Shown piece by piece: positions 7,980 through 62,565 of a stretch of 64,000 nt of DNA (the first letter of the stretch is position 1; the number at the start of each line of letters is the position of its first letter). The position numbers and the translations under genes are program-made. This stretch comes from Escherichia phage vB_ESM-pEJ01: the sequence record OP114734.1. One strand, 5' to 3'. A model generated the notes under the pieces. It was not told where the DNA came from and ran no database searches. It saw only the letters and a list, made by a program, of their open reading frames with translations.

Positions 7980-8539
7980 CTAAAATTTAAAGATGCAAAC
8001 TCCCCGTGATGAATTTTTGCATATTCATCATATGCTCTAGCGGCTTCCTCCTGAGTAGCAAACGATCCTATGTATTTTCTGTATCCGTTTATCCTTATTT
8101 GTGCTTGCCACGGTCTTTTGCTAGATCCTTTGCGATGAGTAACACCATTATATATGCTCGTGCACCCGTCCATTTTCTTTTTATTGTACATGTTTTGTTG
8201 TTGTGTTGCCTCCCGTAAATTTGGTGGATTGTTGTTTTCTGGATTCCCGTCTATGTGGTCTATTACCTTAACCTGTGTTCCATATTCAAGAAACCAGACA
8301 ATTCTATGTACAAGATATGTAGATGTTCTCTTTTTAACCTTATTGTAAACATCTATTGCCAAATGACCGTAATTTAACTTTTTTGTTTTTACTTTATCAC
8401 CGACTCGGTAGAAATATCCCTCTGGTAGACCATTAAAAGACGGACTATTTGTTTTGTGATATAGAACACCTTCCGTGTGTTCAAATCTGCGTTTTAATTC
8501 CTCTTGAATTTCAGTATTCCAAAATTTCGCACTTTTCAT
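7976..8539 (-). CDS. HNH homing endonuclease with C-terminal AP2 DNA-binding domain
   Basis: HNH_3 motif VDHIDGNPENNNPPNLREAT; AP2-like YNGVTHRKGSSKRPWQAQIRINGYRKYIGSFATQEEAARAYD; free-standing between rIIA.1 block and topoisomerase gene. Confidence 0.8.
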   Translation of the reverse strand: MKSAKFWNTEIQEELKRRFEHTEGVLYHKTNSPSFNGLPEGYFYRVGDKVKTKKLNYGHLAIDVYNKVKKRTSTYLVHRIVWFLEYGTQVKVIDHIDGNPENNNPPNLREATQQQNMYNKKKMDGCTSIYNGVTHRKGSSKRPWQAQIRINGYRKYIGSFATQEEAARAYDEYAKIHHGEFASLNFS

Positions 8540-8540
8540 A

Positions 8541-19915: not shown

Positions 19916-19941
19916 AATATAATCCTCTCAGTCAAAATATC

Positions 19942-19970
19942 ATTTTACTACTTTAATTATTCTATGTCAA
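19942..19970 (-). promoter_or_regulatory. early-type promoter (-35 TTGACA, 17 nt, -10 TAAAAT)
   Basis: Overlaps stop of HNH gene; feeds ORF 19598..19915. Confidence 0.5.
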
Positions 19971-20706
19971 CAAATTTCCAATTTGGAAAGTCTGGACTCA
20001 TACAACGACGCCGAACGGTTCCGCGCTCGTTTCCTAGTACCTTAGATACTTCCGATACAGATTTATAAATCACACCATCAACAAATACAGCCTTTCGGTC
20101 TTTCCTGTTTTGGTTTTTGCTCTTTTCTCTTCTGGCTTCTACGTTATCCGAATCATTCCATTGTCTCTTTGCTGTCTCTCTGGAAGATATTGCCTTTTGT
20201 TCTTTAACAATATCTTTAACGAGTTGTTCTTGTCCTGTTATCTTCGCCCACACATTAACAGACTGGATAGCATTAGCCTCACTCATTCCCCAGCGTTTGC
20301 CGGATATATTCTTACGACGCACGCGTAGAAATTCGTTAAAGACTTCTTCGCATTGGTGCATATAATCACGAAATCCATATTTCTTAGCCCATGCCTCTTT
20401 AATTGCATCAGACATATTTTCGGCAATACGTCTACGCATCCATGCATACTCCTTATTATTGCGACCGTGACTGGTCATGCACATCATACGCGAAGCCATA
20501 ATAAGACCCACATGTTTAGGATACATTTTAGCTAAAAGTAGATGTGCTGTAAAGTGTTCCTCTGGAGTCAATGGAACGAGATTTTCGTGGTCATCGGTTC
20601 CACCCATACAACGTGGTTTAACGTGATGGATCTCTACATATCCGGTCGGCTTCTCGCGGGTTCTTGCTCGTTCAATCAATTTTTTGTAATGTGCTTTGTA
20701 GTTCAT
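19957..20706 (-). CDS. HNH homing endonuclease with C-terminal DNA-binding module
   Basis: HNH motif YVEIHHVKPRCMGGTDDHENLVPLTPEEHFTAH; start set at MNYKAH with GGAGGA RBS; inserted between uvsX and gene 40/41 block. Confidence 0.75.
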   Translation of the reverse strand: MNYKAHYKKLIERARTREKPTGYVEIHHVKPRCMGGTDDHENLVPLTPEEHFTAHLLLAKMYPKHVGLIMASRMMCMTSHGRNNKEYAWMRRRIAENMSDAIKEAWAKKYGFRDYMHQCEEVFNEFLRVRRKNISGKRWGMSEANAIQSVNVWAKITGQEQLVKDIVKEQKAISSRETAKRQWNDSDNVEARREKSKNQNRKDRKAVFVDGVIYKSVSEVSKVLGNERGTVRRRCMSPDFPNWKFVDIE

Positions 20707-20719
20707 GTGATCCTCCATA

Positions 20720-25793: not shown

Positions 25794-26782
25794 TATACGA
25801 ACTCCAATTCAACCATTAATTGCATTAACAAAAAGACAATGTGAATCTCTTTATCAGCCGCGTGCGCAAACATCTGATTATTTTCACCGATAATCTCGGT
25901 CAGACGAATAATAGAAGCTGGCTTAACTTGAGTATACAACTCATTATAAAGTTTCTTGACAAATTGAGCGTATGTATTGGTATAGCGTGGTGCGAGTTTA
26001 CGCACATTAGCAAACTGTTTAGTTTTAAGTGCTTCCACCACATCGGTTACTTCGGTATTGCTACTTTCGATAACCATGCTCAATACGCCAGCATCAATTT
26101 TACCATGTTTAGCGTAGCGGTCCAAAAGTTTCATTACGCGTCGGAAGTCTGGGAAGTTCTGCTTAACCAATTCCGCTAATACGCGCATTTCTTCTACTGG
26201 CACACCTTCTTTATCAAGAATTGCTTTACACCGGACGATCATTTCTTTCATCATGCGAAGCTGATCATCTTTAGTCGGAGATCCAAACGTGATGGGGTCA
26301 AATCGAGATCGTAACGCTGGGATAATACCTTCTAGATCGTTTGCTGTGATAATGAATGTCACGTTGTTTGAGTATGCCTCAGAGAAACTACGCAAGTGTC
26401 TTTGAGCATCAGCTAGCCCCGCTCGGTCATACTCATCGATAATAACAACTTTGCCTTTTTCTCGTTTTTCTTCATCGAGTGATACACTCTGCGCAAAGCG
26501 TGTAATCTCATCGCGGATAAAATCAATCTTACAATCTGCGCCGTTAACAAACAGATAATCAACACCCACATCTTCGCAAAGCGCCTTAGCAACGGTTGTT
26601 TTACCAGTACCCGGCGATGGGCTATGCAGTATCATAGAAGGGATTCGGCCTTGCTTAACAATCTGCGCGAAGATCTTTTTATCTGCTTCCGGCAGAATAC
26701 ATTCAGAAATTGATTTCGGACGGTATTTCTGTTCCCACTGAAACTCATTTTCATTAACACTCAGCATATAATCACCTCTCAC
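25793..26782 (-). CDS. 44: clamp loader large subunit (AAA+, T4 gp44 homologue)
   Basis: Walker A SPSPGTGKTT, Walker B VVIIDEYD, SRC-like SRF motif. Confidence 0.9.
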   Translation of the reverse strand: MRGDYMLSVNENEFQWEQKYRPKSISECILPEADKKIFAQIVKQGRIPSMILHSPSPGTGKTTVAKALCEDVGVDYLFVNGADCKIDFIRDEITRFAQSVSLDEEKREKGKVVIIDEYDRAGLADAQRHLRSFSEAYSNNVTFIITANDLEGIIPALRSRFDPITFGSPTKDDQLRMMKEMIVRCKAILDKEGVPVEEMRVLAELVKQNFPDFRRVMKLLDRYAKHGKIDAGVLSMVIESSNTEVTDVVEALKTKQFANVRKLAPRYTNTYAQFVKKLYNELYTQVKPASIIRLTEIIGENNQMFAHAADKEIHIVFLLMQLMVELEFV

Positions 26783-26832
26783 AAATTACATCATTAAAAC
26801 GGGGAGTATTTACACTCCCCACAAACATTATA

Positions 26833-27522
26833 TTAGTCGGTGTAGCTGGAGTCAAGGTCACACGCGATCATATAAGATACGGTTTCACTTGCCAGCCATA
26901 CAGCCTTACGGCGAGTGAAGCTCAGTTTGTAATCGCCGAAGTCAGTAGCAACCAGTTTCATGTTATCTTTACGAATAAAGAAATGGAAGTCTGCGGTTCC
27001 GGTATATTCGCCCATATCAAGACAAAACATCTCATTCGGATTATTTTTGTCAATCTCTTCCCAGCCTTTGATCATCAGACGACCATCAATCGGAAGAAAT
27101 TCAAGGCGATCCACTTTAAGCTGATTGCTCATTTTCATAAGCTGTTTCAGATCGTCGTTGCTCAGTTCGTAATCTACATCGCTTGCAGGTGGAGTAACTC
27201 GGCCTTTCGGTGATACGATAGCAGCAGCACTAGCACCAGGATAATTAATTTTCAGACGATCATTAGACACACGAATGTTTCCGGTGCGGTCATCAACCGT
27301 AATATCTGCTTCATCGCCTACCAGATTCAGAATACCCAGGAAAGAGTTAAGATCATAGATCCCAATTTCGTGTTCCAGTTCTTGATTCAGAGTCGCTTCA
27401 CCATATACAACGTTTGTCATGTTTTTGGTGATCAGGACGTTTCCTTTTTTCAGGATGATACCTGGGTTAATAGCGGAAAAGTTTTTCAGGGTAGCAATGG
27501 TTTCTTTAGTCAGTTTCATCAA
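26833..27522 (-). CDS. 45: sliding clamp (T4 gp45 homologue)
   Basis: 229 aa; N-terminus KLTKETIATLKNFSAINPGIIL parallels T4 gp45. Confidence 0.85.
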   Translation of the reverse strand: MMKLTKETIATLKNFSAINPGIILKKGNVLITKNMTNVVYGEATLNQELEHEIGIYDLNSFLGILNLVGDEADITVDDRTGNIRVSNDRLKINYPGASAAAIVSPKGRVTPPASDVDYELSNDDLKQLMKMSNQLKVDRLEFLPIDGRLMIKGWEEIDKNNPNEMFCLDMGEYTGTADFHFFIRKDNMKLVATDFGDYKLSFTRRKAVWLASETVSYMIACDLDSSYTD

Positions 27523-45379: not shown

Positions 45380-45673
45380 TTAACCATTAATCTTGTTTTT
45401 GACTACAAAGGATCTGAACTCATCAAAACCACCTATATAATCACCATTATAGAAAATCTGCGGCATGGTGGCAATAACTTCTACCCCTGCGCGATCCTGA
45501 ATGTCGGCAATGATAGAATCAATCTTTACCGGACGACCGTTTTCGTCTACACCATCATTAACCGGAATGTAGATGTAAGGGATCTTACGCGATTCACAAA
45601 GGCGCTTTGCATTCTGGCAATACTTACAGTTGTAACCTTCAAAACCAAAAATTTCTACCATGTTATACCTCAT
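45380..45673 (-). CDS. nrdC: glutaredoxin (NrdC-like)
   Basis: CKYC active site, TMPQIF..G..IGGFD block as in T4 NrdC. Confidence 0.75.
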   Translation of the reverse strand: MRYNMVEIFGFEGYNCKYCQNAKRLCESRKIPYIYIPVNDGVDENGRPVKIDSIIADIQDRAGVEVIATMPQIFYNGDYIGGFDEFRSFVVKNKING

Positions 45674-46418
45674 TCAGTTCTATATCAAGTTCATTTTCAA
45701 TAATATAGGCATTAACTGCCCGTGCCGCATCATCTTCTGTGTCAAATCTTCCTATATACACACCGCGAACTTTAGCACCGTAATTACCTTGTTTTGGTAC
45801 TTTGTAAACGTATCTATGACGGGAACTTGCTGCTTTTTGGAGCTTCTTGCCATATTCAGACTTTGCATATTCTATATCATCAATCTCGTTTATACAAGAC
45901 CTATCACCAAAATGTTTCAACGCTGCAAGATTATATGCATAAGCCGCACCGATCTCGGAGGGAAAATATCCTAAATGTATAGACTTCCCATCCAACATTA
46001 TTGCACCAGTCCAATAACCTTTATTCTTATTAAACGACACACCTTTATACTTCGAATATGTTTTGCATTTGGTCTTGCTCATATTCATATTATTTTGTTT
46101 GCTTGTCGTCTCTCTAAGGTTTTCAATGCGGCTATTATAACGATCTCGGTCTTTATGATCTATATACTTAGGACAATGACCATGAAACATATGATAGATA
46201 ACACGGTGCATACGTTCGTATCGCTCGCCAGTCCATACAATACGATACCCATCGGGGGTATCACTTCCAGCTAATCCGTTTATAACACCTTTTCGGTGCG
46301 GGTGAATCTTCCACCTAAGAAAACCATCATCATAATAAAACCGTGAATGATATAAATCATACAAACGTTTATCTTCTGGAGTCTTGTGTATAACCTCATA
46401 TTTTAACATTGGTGACAT
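45663..46418 (-). CDS. HNH homing endonuclease with two AP2 domains
   Basis: IDHKDRDRYNSRIENLRETT (HNH_3); YKGVSFNKNKGYWTGAI and YGAKVRGVYIGRFDTEDDAARA (AP2). Confidence 0.8.
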   Translation of the reverse strand: MSPMLKYEVIHKTPEDKRLYDLYHSRFYYDDGFLRWKIHPHRKGVINGLAGSDTPDGYRIVWTGERYERMHRVIYHMFHGHCPKYIDHKDRDRYNSRIENLRETTSKQNNMNMSKTKCKTYSKYKGVSFNKNKGYWTGAIMLDGKSIHLGYFPSEIGAAYAYNLAALKHFGDRSCINEIDDIEYAKSEYGKKLQKAASSRHRYVYKVPKQGNYGAKVRGVYIGRFDTEDDAARAVNAYIIENELDIELNEV

Positions 46419-47211
46419 AAACTTCCTTAGTATCGGATTTTTTACCCCCGCTACGGTCTAAACAATATGTTTTATCCAGTTCAACAACAGAAATATCATT
46501 ACGTTCGATAAAATCAAGCAAATGGTTGTTAACTTTCCCTTTGTGGTGAGTAACATTGCTTAATCCAAACTTAGTACCGCTAGACATTAATGATTCTATC
46601 CACATGTAGAATTTAATCTCTTCTTCTTCACTCCAGAACTTATTATATTCTGCCGACGTGATCCAATATGGCGGATCAAGGAAAACGAAATCACCTGGCA
46701 AGATCTCGATCTCATCATAACGACCAGACGTAAAACTGATTCGACCGTCTTTGTTTTCTTCCTTAAAATTCAGGACACGCTCTACCGCGTTTTCGTTAAA
46801 AGTCCGTCGGCCAAAATTAGCATTAAATTCGCCCTTCCGGTTGTGGCGGTTAATGTTGCTAAAACTATGCTGAATCAACACAAACAGCGATAACGGATCT
46901 GGATTCTCGTTATACTTCTTACGGAATGTCATGTAAGCGTCTTTATCTTCGCGAGACAAACCATTTTCGGCAATAATACGCTTGATCGTAGAAACCGGAT
47001 CAGGACACTCGTCAATCGCTTTGTACGCGTCAATTAAGCGGTGATCATAGTCATTAGCCAGCACATCCCCTTCGACGTACAGAGACACGCTCAAGCCGCC
47101 ACAGAAGGCATCAACAAAGCGGTTATAGTGCTTAGGGAAATACTTACTAACACTTGGCAATAACTTTTCCTTATTCCCAGTATAGGGAATTAAACCTAAT
47201 GCTTTCTTCAT
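46396..47211 (-). CDS. dam: DNA adenine methyltransferase (Dam)
   Basis: FVDAFCGGLSV SAM-binding motif and DPPY catalytic motif; blocks match T4 Dam. Confidence 0.85.
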   Translation of the reverse strand: MKKALGLIPYTGNKEKLLPSVSKYFPKHYNRFVDAFCGGLSVSLYVEGDVLANDYDHRLIDAYKAIDECPDPVSTIKRIIAENGLSREDKDAYMTFRKKYNENPDPLSLFVLIQHSFSNINRHNRKGEFNANFGRRTFNENAVERVLNFKEENKDGRISFTSGRYDEIEILPGDFVFLDPPYWITSAEYNKFWSEEEEIKFYMWIESLMSSGTKFGLSNVTHHKGKVNNHLLDFIERNDISVVELDKTYCLDRSGGKKSDTKEVYVTNVKI

Positions 47212-58242: not shown

Positions 58243-58578
58243 TTATCCTTTCTTAAACAAATTGCGAAGCCAGTATACAAACGGGATTTCTTTAAACTTG
58301 AATTTCTCTATAGTTAATTCTTTAGTAGCAAGATGAATACCATAAGCATCATGTGTCACGATATGCCATTTTCTATAGTCCAAATGTGAACAACCGTCTG
58401 GATCTAGGTTAATAAGAGTTTCTCGCTCACTAGGATTATTTTTCCACAATTTTGTAATAGGATCGCACATAATTCGACCTAGCGTACCATGAATAATCTC
58501 ACAACGGTAAAGTTTTCCAGCAGTGAGATAGGCGCACCCGTCATAGTCGGTATAAACAAACACTTCTTTAACACTCAT
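58243..58578 (-). CDS. paralogous small protein (DGC.HL family, two repeats)
   Basis: YDGCAYL and DGCSHLDYRKW; start at MSVKEV after promoter 58607..58635. Confidence 0.45.
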   Translation of the reverse strand: MSVKEVFVYTDYDGCAYLTAGKLYRCEIIHGTLGRIMCDPITKLWKNNPSERETLINLDPDGCSHLDYRKWHIVTHDAYGIHLATKELTIEKFKFKEIPFVYWLRNLFKKG

Positions 58579-58635: not shown

Positions 58636-58896
58636 CTACTTTTTCAAGATTTTTTTAATTGCGTTCCAAAGACCTTTATTCTCAGGTTGTTTTGGTTCTT
58701 CGATTAGTGTCCATGTTCGACCGTCTAAGTGTGCACAATTTTTAAGACAAATAAAAATCTGGTGTCCCTTATCATCACGGATATAACCACTATTCGCAAA
58801 TCTTTCATGTGGTGTATATTCATACAGTGTATTTGGTGTAATATACTTGCGGTTACTATAAGGTGTCATCACATACATCATGGTACTAACTCCCAT
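58636..58896 (-). CDS. paralogous small protein (DGC.HL family)
   Basis: YEYTP..GYIRDDKGHQIFICLKNCAHLDGRTW. Confidence 0.45.
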   Translation of the reverse strand: MGVSTMMYVMTPYSNRKYITPNTLYEYTPHERFANSGYIRDDKGHQIFICLKNCAHLDGRTWTLIEEPKQPENKGLWNAIKKILKK

Positions 58897-59072
58897 TTAT
58901 CACCGCGAAGATGAGAACATCCACCATCAAGAAGTATCGTAATACGATAACCTATATCATCTTTGATGTAACCGATTGTCGGTGGATTTTCGTCGTCTCG
59001 TGTCGGGGTAAAATCATACATCTTTCCGGGCGTAATATCTTGTCCTTTATTGCTATTGGTATAAACTTTCAT
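58878..59072 (-). CDS. paralogous small protein (DGC.HL family)
   Basis: YDFTP..GYIKDDIGYRITILLDGGCSHLRGDKW. Confidence 0.45.
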   Translation of the reverse strand: MKVYTNSNKGQDITPGKMYDFTPTRDDENPPTIGYIKDDIGYRITILLDGGCSHLRGDKWELVP

Positions 59073-59093: not shown

Positions 59094-59792
59094 CTAACCA
59101 CGGGTATAGTGTTCCAGAACAACTGTCAGATGAATATATTCTAATAGATCTTTCCAAAAGTCAACATCTGGTTCTTCCGGCATACCGTTTTTCTTTGCCT
59201 CTTCACGCGCGAGTTTAACACGTTCGTAGAGATCTTTCAATTCTTCCCGCACATTATCAAAGGTTCTTTCTCCTAACTTACACGCTAAAATAGAAGAACG
59301 TCGCGCGAGCGGGAATTGTAGATCACCTGTCTGATAGATTTCAAGTAGCTGATAACCAACACGCAGAGCATGAGAAAGATCTTTCCAGTTACTGAAATAC
59401 TTTTCAGATTTGGCTACCTGTTTCTTGAGATAACCAGACAAACCCCACATCCCAACATGATAGAATTTATCGCGATGTGTTCGGATGTATTCCCATTCTC
59501 TGGAGGATTCAATCAACATGTTACTAGGCGCGTGCACCATGTCAATAGCGCCGATATCACCTTTACATGCCAGATTGATAAACCGTTTTAGACTAAACAT
59601 ATTAACGTCAATATCGTCTTTGGTGTTCTTGATACCTTGACCGCTAGTGCTTTGGTCATAGTGTTCTTTCATCGATCCTAAGATAATTTCTTTCGCAGTC
59701 GGAACAAAGATACCACGATAATCTTTATCTGAATTTTCAGTATCAAGGCCGTATAAGTGAGATCCGAAGACCATTTTAACCATTGTATGCAT
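59094..59792 (-). CDS. Pol-beta superfamily nucleotidyltransferase (function unknown)
   Basis: N-terminal FGSHLYGLDTENSDKDYRGIF fits hG[GS]...DhD NTase motif; helical C-terminal domain. Confidence 0.5.
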   Translation of the reverse strand: MHTMVKMVFGSHLYGLDTENSDKDYRGIFVPTAKEIILGSMKEHYDQSTSGQGIKNTKDDIDVNMFSLKRFINLACKGDIGAIDMVHAPSNMLIESSREWEYIRTHRDKFYHVGMWGLSGYLKKQVAKSEKYFSNWKDLSHALRVGYQLLEIYQTGDLQFPLARRSSILACKLGERTFDNVREELKDLYERVKLAREEAKKNGMPEEPDVDFWKDLLEYIHLTVVLEHYTRG

Positions 59793-59810
59793 AATTAAAC
59801 CCTCAGTTGA

Positions 59811-60404
59811 TTAAACGTATTCAGCAACAACATTATGTTTAAAATTACCGCTCCTTTTTGGATTTGGATTTTTCAATCGACTATGTATTAAATTTTTGTT
59901 GTATCCGGTTGCTTTAGACGCTTCGCCAATACTTTGATAAACAACACCATTAACACGAATCGGACGAGACTTATTAAACAGTTTATTCAATCCGGCATCA
60001 TATGCATGGTTTTGGTTTTCTTGCCTCGTTGCGATCTCAAGATTCCAAACACAATTACAAGATTTTACCCCACTTTTATGATTAATTTCAAGACCTTCAC
60101 AATCACCTATAAAGTGTTCAGCAACTAGTCTATGAATATAGCGATATTTCTTACTTTCCCCATCATGCAAGCATACATTATAATAACCATCACCAGCGCG
60201 TTTAGGTCGGAGTAGTTTACCTTTAACACGTTTTATAGTAGGGAACTCACCAAATTGATTTCTCTGGATAAACGGAATCTCGCGGTCTAATGAACGGATT
60301 CGACCATAGTTAGACACTTGATAAAAACTTTCATATCCTTTAATTGGCTTCCATATCTCAGGGATTTCTACACCATCAATAACAACAAGTTTAAATTCTT
60401 CCAT
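59811..60404 (-). CDS. HNH homing endonuclease (NUMOD4-like N-terminus + HNH_3)
   Basis: YQVSNYGRIRSL; HRLVAEHFIGDCEGLEINHKSGVKSCNCVWNLEIATRQENQNH. Confidence 0.8.
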   Translation of the reverse strand: MEEFKLVVIDGVEIPEIWKPIKGYESFYQVSNYGRIRSLDREIPFIQRNQFGEFPTIKRVKGKLLRPKRAGDGYYNVCLHDGESKKYRYIHRLVAEHFIGDCEGLEINHKSGVKSCNCVWNLEIATRQENQNHAYDAGLNKLFNKSRPIRVNGVVYQSIGEASKATGYNKNLIHSRLKNPNPKRSGNFKHNVVAEYV

Positions 60405-60413
60405 ATTTCACCT

Positions 60414-60446
60414 CATAAAAATAAAGCCAACCCTTTCGGATTGGCT
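60414..60446 (-). terminator. rho-independent terminator after GrcA-like gene
   Basis: AGCCAATCC-gaaa-GGGTTGGCT hairpin followed by TTTATTTTTAT. Confidence 0.6.
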
Positions 60447-60452
60447 TGTTGA

Positions 60453-60866
60453 TTACATAGATTCCGTAAAGGTACGGGTGATAATATCAAGTTGTTGTTC
60501 GCGTGTCAAGGCGTTGAAGCGGGTAGCATAACCACTGATTCGAATTGTAAGCTGCGGGTACTTCTCAGGATGTTCAACCGCATCAAGAAGAGTCTCCCGA
60601 CGCAGTACATTCGCGTTGAGATGATGACCCGCGTTACTATTTACCCCGTTATCAATTGCTAAAGGACGGAAGCTAGTTGTGTGCAGTTCCAGCGAATCGA
60701 CGTCTTCTGCGGTGATCACATGATCTTCTGCGAAAGTTTTACTAACAATTACTTTAGCGCCGATCAGTGCTTTCGGTTCGGATACCAGAATCATAGGCGC
60801 GAAATGTCCACCGATAATAGTACCTTTATGCTCACCTTTCATGATTTGAATTGCTTTAAATTCCAT
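60453..60866 (-). CDS. autonomous glycyl radical cofactor (GrcA/YfiD-like, PFL C-terminal domain)
   Basis: C-terminus [44 protein letters not shown] is nearly the GrcA/PflB glycyl-radical signature (RVSGYAVRFNSLT..). Confidence 0.75.
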
Positions 60867-60876
60867 AATTCACCTC

Positions 60877-61002
60877 TTATAGATCAGGACGTTCGTCATT
60901 AATTTTACCAACCAAAACCCCATAGAGTTTATCAGGTTGGACTTTACGATTCTTATTGATTGTAGCACGGAATCGACGAGCCACGCTATCTTTATTTTTC
61001 AT
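60877..61002 (-). CDS. possible basic 41-aa protein, translationally coupled (TAATG)
   Basis: MKNKDSVARRFRATINKNRKVQ...; start overlaps upstream stop; stop sits next to GrcA RBS. Confidence 0.3.
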   Translation of the reverse strand: MKNKDSVARRFRATINKNRKVQPDKLYGVLVGKINDERPDL

Positions 61003-61493
61003 TAGTTGATACCTAAGCCAATGAAAATAGGTTGGTCTTCTACATTACCCATCCCAACACTAAGTCGATTCAATTCTAAAAACTGCAATACGCTGTCAGT
61101 AAATCCGCGCATGGTAGTATCTAGGATAAAAATTGTTTTGTCAAGACTACGACCTCGCCATGTGATCGGATTCAGGAAAGTTCGGATAGACGTACAATCT
61201 ACATTTGAAATATTTACATTTTCACCGCGACCGCGATCTCGGATCGTTTTGGCATGTTCTCGCGTCGTTGAAACGATAAAGACACTATAGCCCTTTCGCG
61301 TATAATGGTCATATAACTTGATTGTAGCGTCTGTATGCCCTGTCTGACGGCCTAAATTGATTGAGACAATGGAATCTAGGTCATCAGCAAAATTGCGTCG
61401 CTTACGGCGTTCTATGATGCCATTTACGGCAGAAATACACGCAGCATAAATCAAATCTTTACTTTCTAATTCTAAATCAATGTCAATATTCAT
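61002..61493 (-). CDS. hypothetical protein (163 aa)
   Basis: ORF. Confidence 0.4.
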   Translation of the reverse strand: MNIDIDLELESKDLIYAACISAVNGIIERRKRRNFADDLDSIVSINLGRQTGHTDATIKLYDHYTRKGYSVFIVSTTREHAKTIRDRGRGENVNISNVDCTSIRTFLNPITWRGRSLDKTIFILDTTMRGFTDSVLQFLELNRLSVGMGNVEDQPIFIGLGIN

Positions 61494-61555
61494 GGTAAAG
61501 TCTCCAGTGAACGGGGAGAGATCCTTAGATTGTCTCCCCGTTGATGGTTAATATT

Positions 61556-62130
61556 TTATTTTGGATCTGGGAAATTCAATAGAGCATATTCTCCATAAAA
61601 TTTCCTAGCTGCATTATCATAAGCGATTGCAGCTTCGATTTCTGTGTCATATTGTCCAAGAACATGTCTTTGTAGGTTGACCATTATACTAGCTCTCCAT
61701 TTCTTACGCAAATCCTTCCTGTTACACTTACTAACACCCTTATACACACTAGAAAACTTTTAGACTTCTTCTTTCTATTATGTTGATTTTGCGCGTCGGT
61801 TGCCTCCATAAGATTTGGAGGATTGTTATTAGCAGGATTACCGTCAATATGATCAATTAATCTAACTTGCGTCCCATGTTCTAGAAACCAAACAACCCTA
61901 TGCACGAATAGATGAACTCTAGGAAGACCGTCATCTCTACTATGCCAAAATCTAAGATGACCATCTTTATTTGTTCTGACTTTAACTAAATCGCCGTGTT
62001 TATATCTACTCCCTAATGGTCGTCCTTTGATAGCTTTACTATCGACTCTATAATATAAGATACCCTCTATATGAGCATATCTAAGTTTTATCTCGTTTTG
62101 TAGGGATTCATCCCAATATTTAAAAGCCAT
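61556..62130 (-). pseudogene. HNH-AP2 homing endonuclease gene disrupted by frameshift
   Basis: HNH part (61684..62130, VHRVVWFLEHGTQVRLIDHIDGNPANNNPPNL) and AP2 part (61556..61747, YKGVSK..AAIAYDNAARKFYGEYA) lie in different frames and overlap by 64 nt; intact paralogue at 7976..8539. Confidence 0.6.
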
Positions 62131-62175
62131 TTTATAATCCTCACAAAGCCAGCGATTAAGCTGGCTTTATTTTAG

Positions 62176-62565
62176 TTATACCGGGTCTGGATATACCTTT
62201 TTATCGAGTTCCATATGCGGTCCGTCTTTAAAAGTAACCCAATCAACACCGCAGATAACAGGAACACCCAATTCTCGACCAGCTTGTTTAAATGCATCAG
62301 CGATCATGCGGTAATATTTCATGTTCCATGTATCCTTATCTTTCGGATACGCTACAACGTCAACCGCGAAACCGTGAAGATGACGAGATTTCATAGTCTT
62401 AGATTTACCTTCCGCAACATATTTCTTTTGCGTTTCTAGACTACGCACACCTTCCGTAATACCAAAATCGACCGGAGTCAGTTCTAATGCACGATGAACG
62501 ACTTTTACCAGGTCTGGATGTACACCAACAAGCCGATCTTTGCTTCTTTGAGATAATTTAAACAT
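62176..62565 (-). CDS. endolysin, L-alanyl-D-glutamate peptidase (peptidase M15-like)
   Basis: Zn-binding H/D/H arrangement SRHLHGFAVDV ... DGPHMEL typical of M15/VanY-type phage endolysins. Confidence 0.7.
   Translation of the reverse strand: MFKLSQRSKDRLVGVHPDLVKVVHRALELTPVDFGITEGVRSLETQKKYVAEGKSKTMKSRHLHGFAVDVVAYPKDKDTWNMKYYRMIADAFKQAGRELGVPVICGVDWVTFKDGPHMELDKKVYPDPV

Follow-up and report, generated by a model that had tools for sequence, protein, structure and literature searches.

We found that nrdC.11 of Escherichia phage vB_ESM-pEJ01 encodes an intact, strongly constrained, two-domain nucleotidyltransferase (NTase) that has an hG[GS] motif and three conserved aspartates. On the strength of sequence comparison, we assign this Krischvirus gene as the ortholog of T4 NrdC.11 and place it in RlaP (PF10127), a family of Pol-beta-type NTases, and we predict with near certainty that its product is an active enzyme of that family. 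The best reading of its role, and one that we regard as reasonably probable, is that it would fill gaps in trimmed tRNA breaks before RNA ligase 1 (Rnl1) seals them. The window in which the gene was analyzed comprises 64,000 nucleotides of sequence record OP114734.1. Within it, an ATG-to-stop open reading frame (ORF) fills positions 59094-59792 on the minus strand and specifies a protein of 232 amino acids. A previous sequence-only reading of this DNA had delimited exactly this span without giving a strand. A Shine-Dalgarno sequence, GAGGG, can be read directly 7 nt 5' of the ATG (59800..59804, minus strand), and the ATG start is supported by the homologue alignments, which begin at M1. The annotation of this coding sequence (59094..59792, minus strand) as a short-form RlaP-family Pol-beta-type NTase draws on matches to PF10127 and PHROG 388, on its counterparts RB49p098 and T4 NrdC.11, and on dN/dS.

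The region of ~3.5 kb around nrdC.11 matches 58 phage records at 90-99% identity, almost all of them from Krischvirus, the RB49-like T4-type phages that infect E. coli and Shigella. In RefSeq, the RB49 gene is RB49p098, "nrdC.11, nucleotidyltransferase", and its product differs from the pEJ01 protein by one residue; the same gene is labeled NrdC.11 in phage JK32. The role of the protein had been called unknown in the sequence-only reading, a label that has to be dropped: both the RB49 and the T4 copies of nrdC.11 are annotated "nucleotidyltransferase" in RefSeq, and Nolan et al. placed nrdC.11 orthologues in the nucleotidyltransferase domain COG3541 in 2006 (PMC1524935). The gene is thus already catalogued, with a RefSeq annotation, a named Pfam family and published biochemistry for that family.

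The active-site signature hG[GS]x9-13DhD had been recognized in the N-terminal peptide FGSHLYGLDTENSDKDYRGIF, which corresponds to residues 9-29 of the NrdC.11 protein. A check of the translation confirmed hG[GS]-x10-DxD, in the form F9-G10-S11, ten residues and D22-K23-D24, and the signature is intact and conserved in three alignments. The protein matched the Pfam profile PF10127 with E=3.4e-14 and 53.6 bits, against a curated gathering cut-off of 23, over residues 7-191 (profile positions 24-198 of 249). PHROG 388, "nucleotidyltransferase", was matched in two stretches with E=2e-79, and 3575 cluster representatives matched in a HMMER scan at E<=1e-3; these three results argue that the motif did not arise by chance. 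In BLASTP, T4 NrdC.11 aligned with the 232-amino-acid protein at both ends around a gap of 104-106 residues (E=1e-50). PF10127 was the first of the Pfam NTase families that the sequence-only reading had named for a profile check, and it was the only family found in a Pfam search up to E=1. The family is thus RlaP specifically: the profiles for CCA-adding enzymes (PolyA_pol), MNT antitoxins (NTP_transf_2), CD-NTases (SMODS) and antibiotic NTases were all absent from that search. A search of NCBIfam with the NrdC.11 protein gave zero matches, PADLOC gave no significant match, and sequence searches of the PDB, run with NrdC.11 alone and also with a pair of family profiles, retrieved nothing relevant.

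We next mapped the conserved residues onto a predicted structure. An AlphaFold2 model built from 42 homologues had a mean pLDDT of 92.2 and a pTM of 0.88, and its architecture is that of an alpha/beta NTase domain joined to a helical domain. The N-terminal half is modeled as strand 2-9, a G10-S11 turn, a short helix (11-14), and strands 23-30 and 61-67; the C-terminal half consists of a helical domain (116-201) that is followed by a terminal helix (210-230). The hG[GS] NTP-binding motif F9-G10-S11 (59760..59768, minus strand) lies where strand 1 leads into the first helix, and G10 and S11 are invariant in all three alignments. D22-K23-D24 (59721..59729, minus strand), at the start of strand 2, supplies the first two metal-binding carboxylates, as judged from alignments and model; in the three alignments D22 is invariant and D24 invariant or nearly so. 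D60-I61-D62 (59607..59615, minus strand) is part of a conserved NTKDDID motif in which D62 is invariant. In the model D62 falls on strand 61-67 in an h[DE]h context (I61-D62-V63) and is the probable third catalytic carboxylate; the metal-binding triad D22/D24/D62 was assigned from topology. K137, H141 and R144 (59361..59384, minus strand) lie on the first long helix (136-155) of the C-terminal helical domain. K137 is invariant and H141 and R144 are nearly so, and from their modeled position all three are candidate NTP- or RNA-binding residues facing the cleft. In the alignment that also takes in Bacillaceae proteins and a paralogue of 17% identity, G10, S11, D22, D62 and K137 were invariant, and D24, N56, D59, D60, H141, R144 and D209 nearly so. 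The earlier identification of the protein as a Pol-beta-type NTase is therefore upheld by the PF10127 match (E=3.4e-14), by the NTase fold that both the model and fold searches returned, and by alignment of the catalytic aspartates (D22 and D62 invariant, D24 nearly so).

Fold searches were then used to look for relatives of solved structure. Against the PDB, Foldseek returned ANT(4')/kanamycin NTase, Hailong HalB, LinB and 3c18 with E values of 2e-5 to 9e-4; in BFVD, the matches were phage "nucleotidyltransferase" entries and one "RNA repair pathway protein". The best solved-structure match, HalB, makes DNA, so the fold by itself does not specify the substrate. Aminoglycoside and lincosamide NTases are among the nearest folds of solved structure, and the C-terminal bundle resembles HEPN/KNTase_C domains. 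It is on such fold resemblance only that NrdC.11 might be thought to nucleotidylylate a small molecule, as ANT and Lnu enzymes do, or a host defence protein, in the manner of MNT-like AMPylation of a HEPN RNase. We consider this improbable: sequence matches to those families were absent in Pfam, NCBIfam and PADLOC, the RNA-ligase linkage of the clade described below points to RNA, and neither E. coli proteins nor DNA were labeled by RlaPs from Pseudomonas (PMC12776372).

HalB raises a different possibility. This enzyme makes tyrosine-primed oligodeoxyadenylate, which keeps the HalA channel closed in host defence (PMC13434031), and NrdC.11 could in principle be a HalB-like polymerase of short DNA or oligonucleotides, for example one whose product is a decoy that keeps a DNA-gated host effector, such as Hailong HalA, off. 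HalB is only 13% identical, its structure (PDB 9dbh) was not retrieved by either of the two family profiles, even at E<=10 for the broader one, PADLOC gave no significant match, and RlaPs from Pseudomonas halt once 1-2 nucleotides have been added and leave DNA unextended (PMC12776372). Such an activity thus seems very unlikely. Slightly more remote still is a version in which short-form NrdC.11 would be a stand-alone counter-defence enzyme with HalB-like chemistry and not a helper of ligases, making short oligonucleotides or extending 3' ends and thereby supplying or mimicking an inhibitory nucleic-acid signal, such as oligo-dA that closes a DNA-gated effector like HalA. If true, this version would explain both the distance of the gene from pseT and rnlA and its place in a variable interval of accessory genes.

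The pEJ01 protein is shorter than most of its relatives. Close relatives are nearly all 305-345 amino acids long and align with the 232-residue protein in two stretches; T4-type proteins carry an insert of ~100 residues after residue ~131 that is missing from the pEJ01 protein and from a metagenomic homologue, P0002. The latter, 234 residues long and 57% identical, has kept all motifs and matches PF10127 over profile positions 23-229. Its contig is syntenic, with genes in the order M15 peptidase, vs.8, Gly_radical, HNH and RlaP, and then two small ORFs at the position of three small paralogous ORFs that lie downstream of nrdC.11 in pEJ01. Further short forms were found in phages and in Bacillaceae. 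Among six Krischvirus pairs, the five with any amino-acid change had dN/dS values of 0.02-0.05 and the sixth was unchanged. We had considered whether the short length reflects a damaging deletion. This was ruled out by the collinearity with PF10127 and the other short forms, and by a model that is confident across the junction together with the dN/dS values. By sequence, the 232-residue protein is best classed as a short-form variant that still falls within the T4 NrdC.11 orthologous group. The description of this short form, together with the linkage of the NrdC.11 clade itself to RNA ligases and end-healing enzymes, is what is modestly new here.

Two further observations concern the longer forms. 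The conserved T4-type insert (seen, for example, at L008:13439-14446 in T4 and in protein P0037; alignment columns ~136-245) contains the motifs KYGxKGSRLA, FYEVLGRK and EYGERAR in that order; it lies between the NTase and helical domains and had no Pfam assignment. A deltaproteobacterial contig carries two adjacent PF10127-like paralogues (L012:5001-6727), one a long NrdC.11-like form and the other a divergent form of 254 residues that is 17% identical to the pEJ01 protein.

The genes on either side of nrdC.11 are as the sequence-only reading had claimed, and neither side is part of the mechanism proposed below. Directly upstream is a free-standing NUMOD4/HNH_3 homing endonuclease gene (59811..60404, minus strand; Pfam), and directly downstream, also on the minus strand, are three paralogous small ORFs (58878-59072, 58636-58896 and 58243-58578) that encode 64, 86 and 111 residues, share 34-42% mutual identity and an invariant C-x-H-L...W motif, and cross-hit PHROG families phrog_6261/15978. 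Together with nrdC.11 these paralogues occupy the interval between regB and vs.6, which in T4 holds vs.3, vs.4 and vs.5; we compared the two sets and rejected a correspondence, as they are unrelated. The NUMOD4/HNH_3 insertion (59815-60412) is present neither in RB49 nor in the records whose coverage is 83%.

An HNH gene also lies directly upstream of nrdC.11 in T4 (mobD), and T4 nrdC.11 is dispensable (PMC9825161), as might be expected if the gene were a decaying passenger kept solely by its linkage to a homing endonuclease. Several findings contradict this idea: dN/dS is 0.02-0.05, the catalytic residues are all kept at 57% identity and lower, RB49 has an intact nrdC.11 without the endonuclease, and records that lack the HNH gene and cover the interval annotate a nucleotidyltransferase there. 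The selection data effectively refute the passenger reading, to which we give almost no weight. We also considered whether the upstream HNH gene is a homologue of MobD, so that HNH and nrdC.11 would form a mobile cassette, and rejected this because the BLASTP match had E=0.043. Between the T4 locus (L008:13436-15209) and the pEJ01 locus (59094-60404), the free-standing HNH genes directly upstream of nrdC.11 are thus non-homologous, and nrdC.11 may repeatedly serve as a target or landing site in homing.

Comparison with RB49 revealed other traces of mobile endonucleases in the window. A second HNH insertion absent from RB49 lies at 61572-62214; its gene (61556-62130, minus strand) encodes an HNH_3 protein with an AP2-like tail. 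Relative to phage JK32, one nucleotide is missing from an A-run near 61745 in this gene, which splits it into ORFs 61684-62130 (HNH) and 61556-61747 (the C-terminal part); the split may mean that the gene is a pseudogene, that a homopolymer was misread in sequencing or that a frameshift site lies here. The 1.16 kb between the two insertions (60413-61571, from vs.6 to vs.8) is 91.4% identical to RB49, and other aligned segments are mostly 96-98% identical, with one at 94.7%; judged by this pattern, the tract looks like a homing-associated exchange tract. On the minus strand inside the end of vs.6, we noted a near-consensus sigma-70 promoter (TTGACA-17-TATTAT with TG, 60509-60481), followed by a 10-bp GC-rich hairpin and T-run (60447-60424, minus strand) just before the HNH insertion. 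Additional stretches without an RB49 counterpart are at ~7980-8568, ~19930-20716 and ~45673-46494. Conversely, the pEJ01 window lacks an equivalent of RB49 26365-26931, a stretch that covers the HNH gene RB49p040 (26380-26934). These presence-absence stretches are probably further mobile-endonuclease polymorphisms.

The RlaP family takes its name from genomic association with RNA ligase genes, and the name was reportedly given by Burroughs and Aravind in 2016. Iyer et al. (2021, PMC7824862) noted that RlaP and RNA ligases are distributed alike among jumbo phages. We examined such linkage among relatives of the NrdC.11 protein at 62 bacterial and 80 viral loci, searching flanks of up to 10 kb with RB49 Rnl1 and PseT, T4 Rnl2, and E. 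coli RtcB and RtcA. Since T4-like genomes carry 1-2 RNA ligases per ~170 kb, the distribution of distances was used in preference to simply counting the 20-kb windows that contain a ligase. At 16 of the 142 loci (11 non-redundant arrangements, 7 of them within 1.6 kb), the NTase gene had an Rnl1-like or RtcB gene <=3.5 kb away, and none of the 142 had such a gene at 3.5-10 kb. The chance of this clustering is ~0.35^11, a rough figure that assumes uniform position and ignores the shorter flanks of some loci. Pfam confirmed the identity of neighboring genes, among them two compact RNA-repair cassettes. A viral contig (L080:3443-8088) encodes a P-loop kinase, an HD phosphohydrolase plus kinase, an Rnl1-family ligase and RlaP; a Nitratifractor sp. 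metagenome-assembled genome (L043:464-4305) has a CCA-adding enzyme, RlaP and RtcB; and two other loci combine RlaP with an HD protein and RtcB (L082) or with an ATP-dependent ligase and RtcB (L131). Ligases within 3.5 kb in 11 arrangements indicate that the association with RNA repair covers NrdC.11-like proteins and extends beyond the Pseudomonas cluster. At the other 126 of the 142 loci, no ligase was found in the fetched flanks. In RB49, pseT (Pnkp) and rnlA (Rnl1) are present ~75 kb from nrdC.11, and no rnlB is annotated; in the 64-kb window pseT, rnlA and tRNA genes are all absent. The association with RNA repair is thus genomic, and not local, at the pEJ01 locus.

Many bacterial anti-phage systems cut tRNAs, and some of the nucleases also remove a nucleotide, so that function is not restored by simple religation. 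The activity of RlaPs on such ends was described in a December 2025 preprint on two Pseudomonas enzymes that are encoded between rtcB and rtcA (PMC12776372); these, PfRlaP and PaRlaP, are the only members of the family known to have been characterized biochemically. Both add 1-2 NMPs to RNA 3'-OH ends with a preference for Mn2+, are inactive on DNA and do not label E. coli proteins. On a mimic of cleaved tRNA, RlaP favors the broken 3' end in the anticodon loop to the acceptor end, and a religated tRNA that had lacked one nucleotide is better aminoacylated when RlaP has acted on it beforehand; nucleotide specificity is low, so that only a fraction of the repaired tRNAs would be correct. The authors proposed that RlaP is an antidote to ribotoxins that cut and then trim, such as RloC, and assigned T4 NrdC.11 to cluster 5 of the family, the characterized Pseudomonas enzymes being in cluster 1a (PMC12776372). 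T4 remains viable when nrdC.11 is deleted (PMC9825161); such dispensability fits a conditional or accessory role in counter-defence, though no positive phenotype is associated with it.

Applied to the phage enzyme, these properties suggest the following model. A host anticodon nuclease of the RloC type would cut and trim a tRNA, leaving a gapped anticodon loop, and phage Pnkp (pseT) would heal the ends to a 3'-OH and a 5'-phosphate. NrdC.11 would then refill the missing nucleotide on the 5' half, and phage RNA ligase 1 (rnlA) would seal the break. In the refilling step, G10-S11 and D22/D24/D62 would bind the NTP together with a pair of divalent metal ions (probably Mn2+), the broken RNA would sit in the cleft that separates the NTase domain from the helical one, and one or two nucleotides would be added to the RNA 3'-OH without a template. 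The gene would accordingly act as an accessory, non-essential counter-defence gene.

Repair of tRNA 3' ends had been among the candidate functions in the sequence-only reading. The proposals in the literature (PMC12776372, PMC7824862) and the ligase linkage favor tRNA repair as such; the part of the suggestion that concerned the acceptor end fares less well, a break in the anticodon loop being likelier. NrdC.11 could repair or extend the acceptor (CCA) 3' end of tRNAs against host factors that trim or block it, in keeping with a family of template-independent NTases acting on RNA 3'-OH ends, with the labeling of full-length tRNAs and single-stranded RNAs by Pseudomonas RlaPs (PMC12776372), and with Krischvirus having no annotated CCA-adding enzyme. 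However, RlaP prefers the anticodon-loop end and lacks C/C/A specificity (PMC12776372), the PolyA_pol/CCA profile is unmatched, and the Nitratifractor RlaP gene adjoins that of a genuine CCA-adding enzyme, suggesting that the two are not redundant. We therefore judge acceptor-end repair unlikely, and less probable than gap-filling in the anticodon loop. NrdC.11 more likely acts on the 5' half of a broken anticodon loop, at its 3'-OH.

Several points weigh against gap-filling. The gene is not beside pseT or rnlA here or in T4, and 126 of the 142 loci had no ligase in the flanks. The assignment of T4 NrdC.11 to cluster 5 also places it apart from the characterized cluster 1a enzymes, and no trimming anticodon nuclease has been linked to Krischvirus hosts. 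Should NrdC.11 indeed refill such gaps, the T4 Pnkp/Rnl1 pathway of tRNA repair would gain a third component, and the ability of T4-like phages to escape "repair-proof" anticodon nucleases would be explained. This idea is already in the literature for the RlaP family, and the pEJ01 locus adds no new concept to it; what the locus offers is a test system for gap refilling, in the form of a compact, 232-residue enzyme without the T4-type insert from a genetically tractable E. coli phage.

NrdC.11 can also be compared with known systems. The kanamycin NTase ANT(4') and LinB share the two-domain KNTase-like fold (Foldseek E 2e-5 to 8e-4) but are 10-12% identical, with TM scores of 0.27-0.42 and no Pfam match, and their substrates are small molecules. 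Hailong HalB (PDB 9dbh) is similar at the level of fold only, and no HalA-like membrane-effector partner was found at the pEJ01 nrdC.11 locus. Class II CCA-adding enzymes as well as poly(A) polymerases (PF01743) belong to the same Pol-beta superfamily and add to RNA 3'-OH ends without a template; they differ in their accessory domains and gave no profile match, and on the Nitratifractor contig the CCA enzyme and RlaP are encoded by separate, adjacent genes. T4 NrdC.11 (336 residues) is of the same family, has the same motifs and aligns end to end (E=1e-50). It differs from the Krischvirus protein in its insert of ~100 residues and in synteny, as T4 nrdC.11 lies between mobD and nrdC.10 and the pEJ01 gene between vs.6 and regB. 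Pseudomonas RlaP is in the same Pfam family, PF10127, and the PfRlaP crystal structure, as described (PMC12776372), has an NTase and a helical domain, a last helix that packs back and three aspartates; the pEJ01 model, with its NTase domain, helices at 116-201 and terminal helix at 210-230, may share this plan. The Pseudomonas genes of cluster 1a lie inside rtcB-rtcA operons (PMC12776372), whereas the phage gene stands alone, and, unlike Pseudomonas RlaP, phage NrdC.11 would likely have the 5'-phosphate ligase Rnl1 and Pnkp as its partners.
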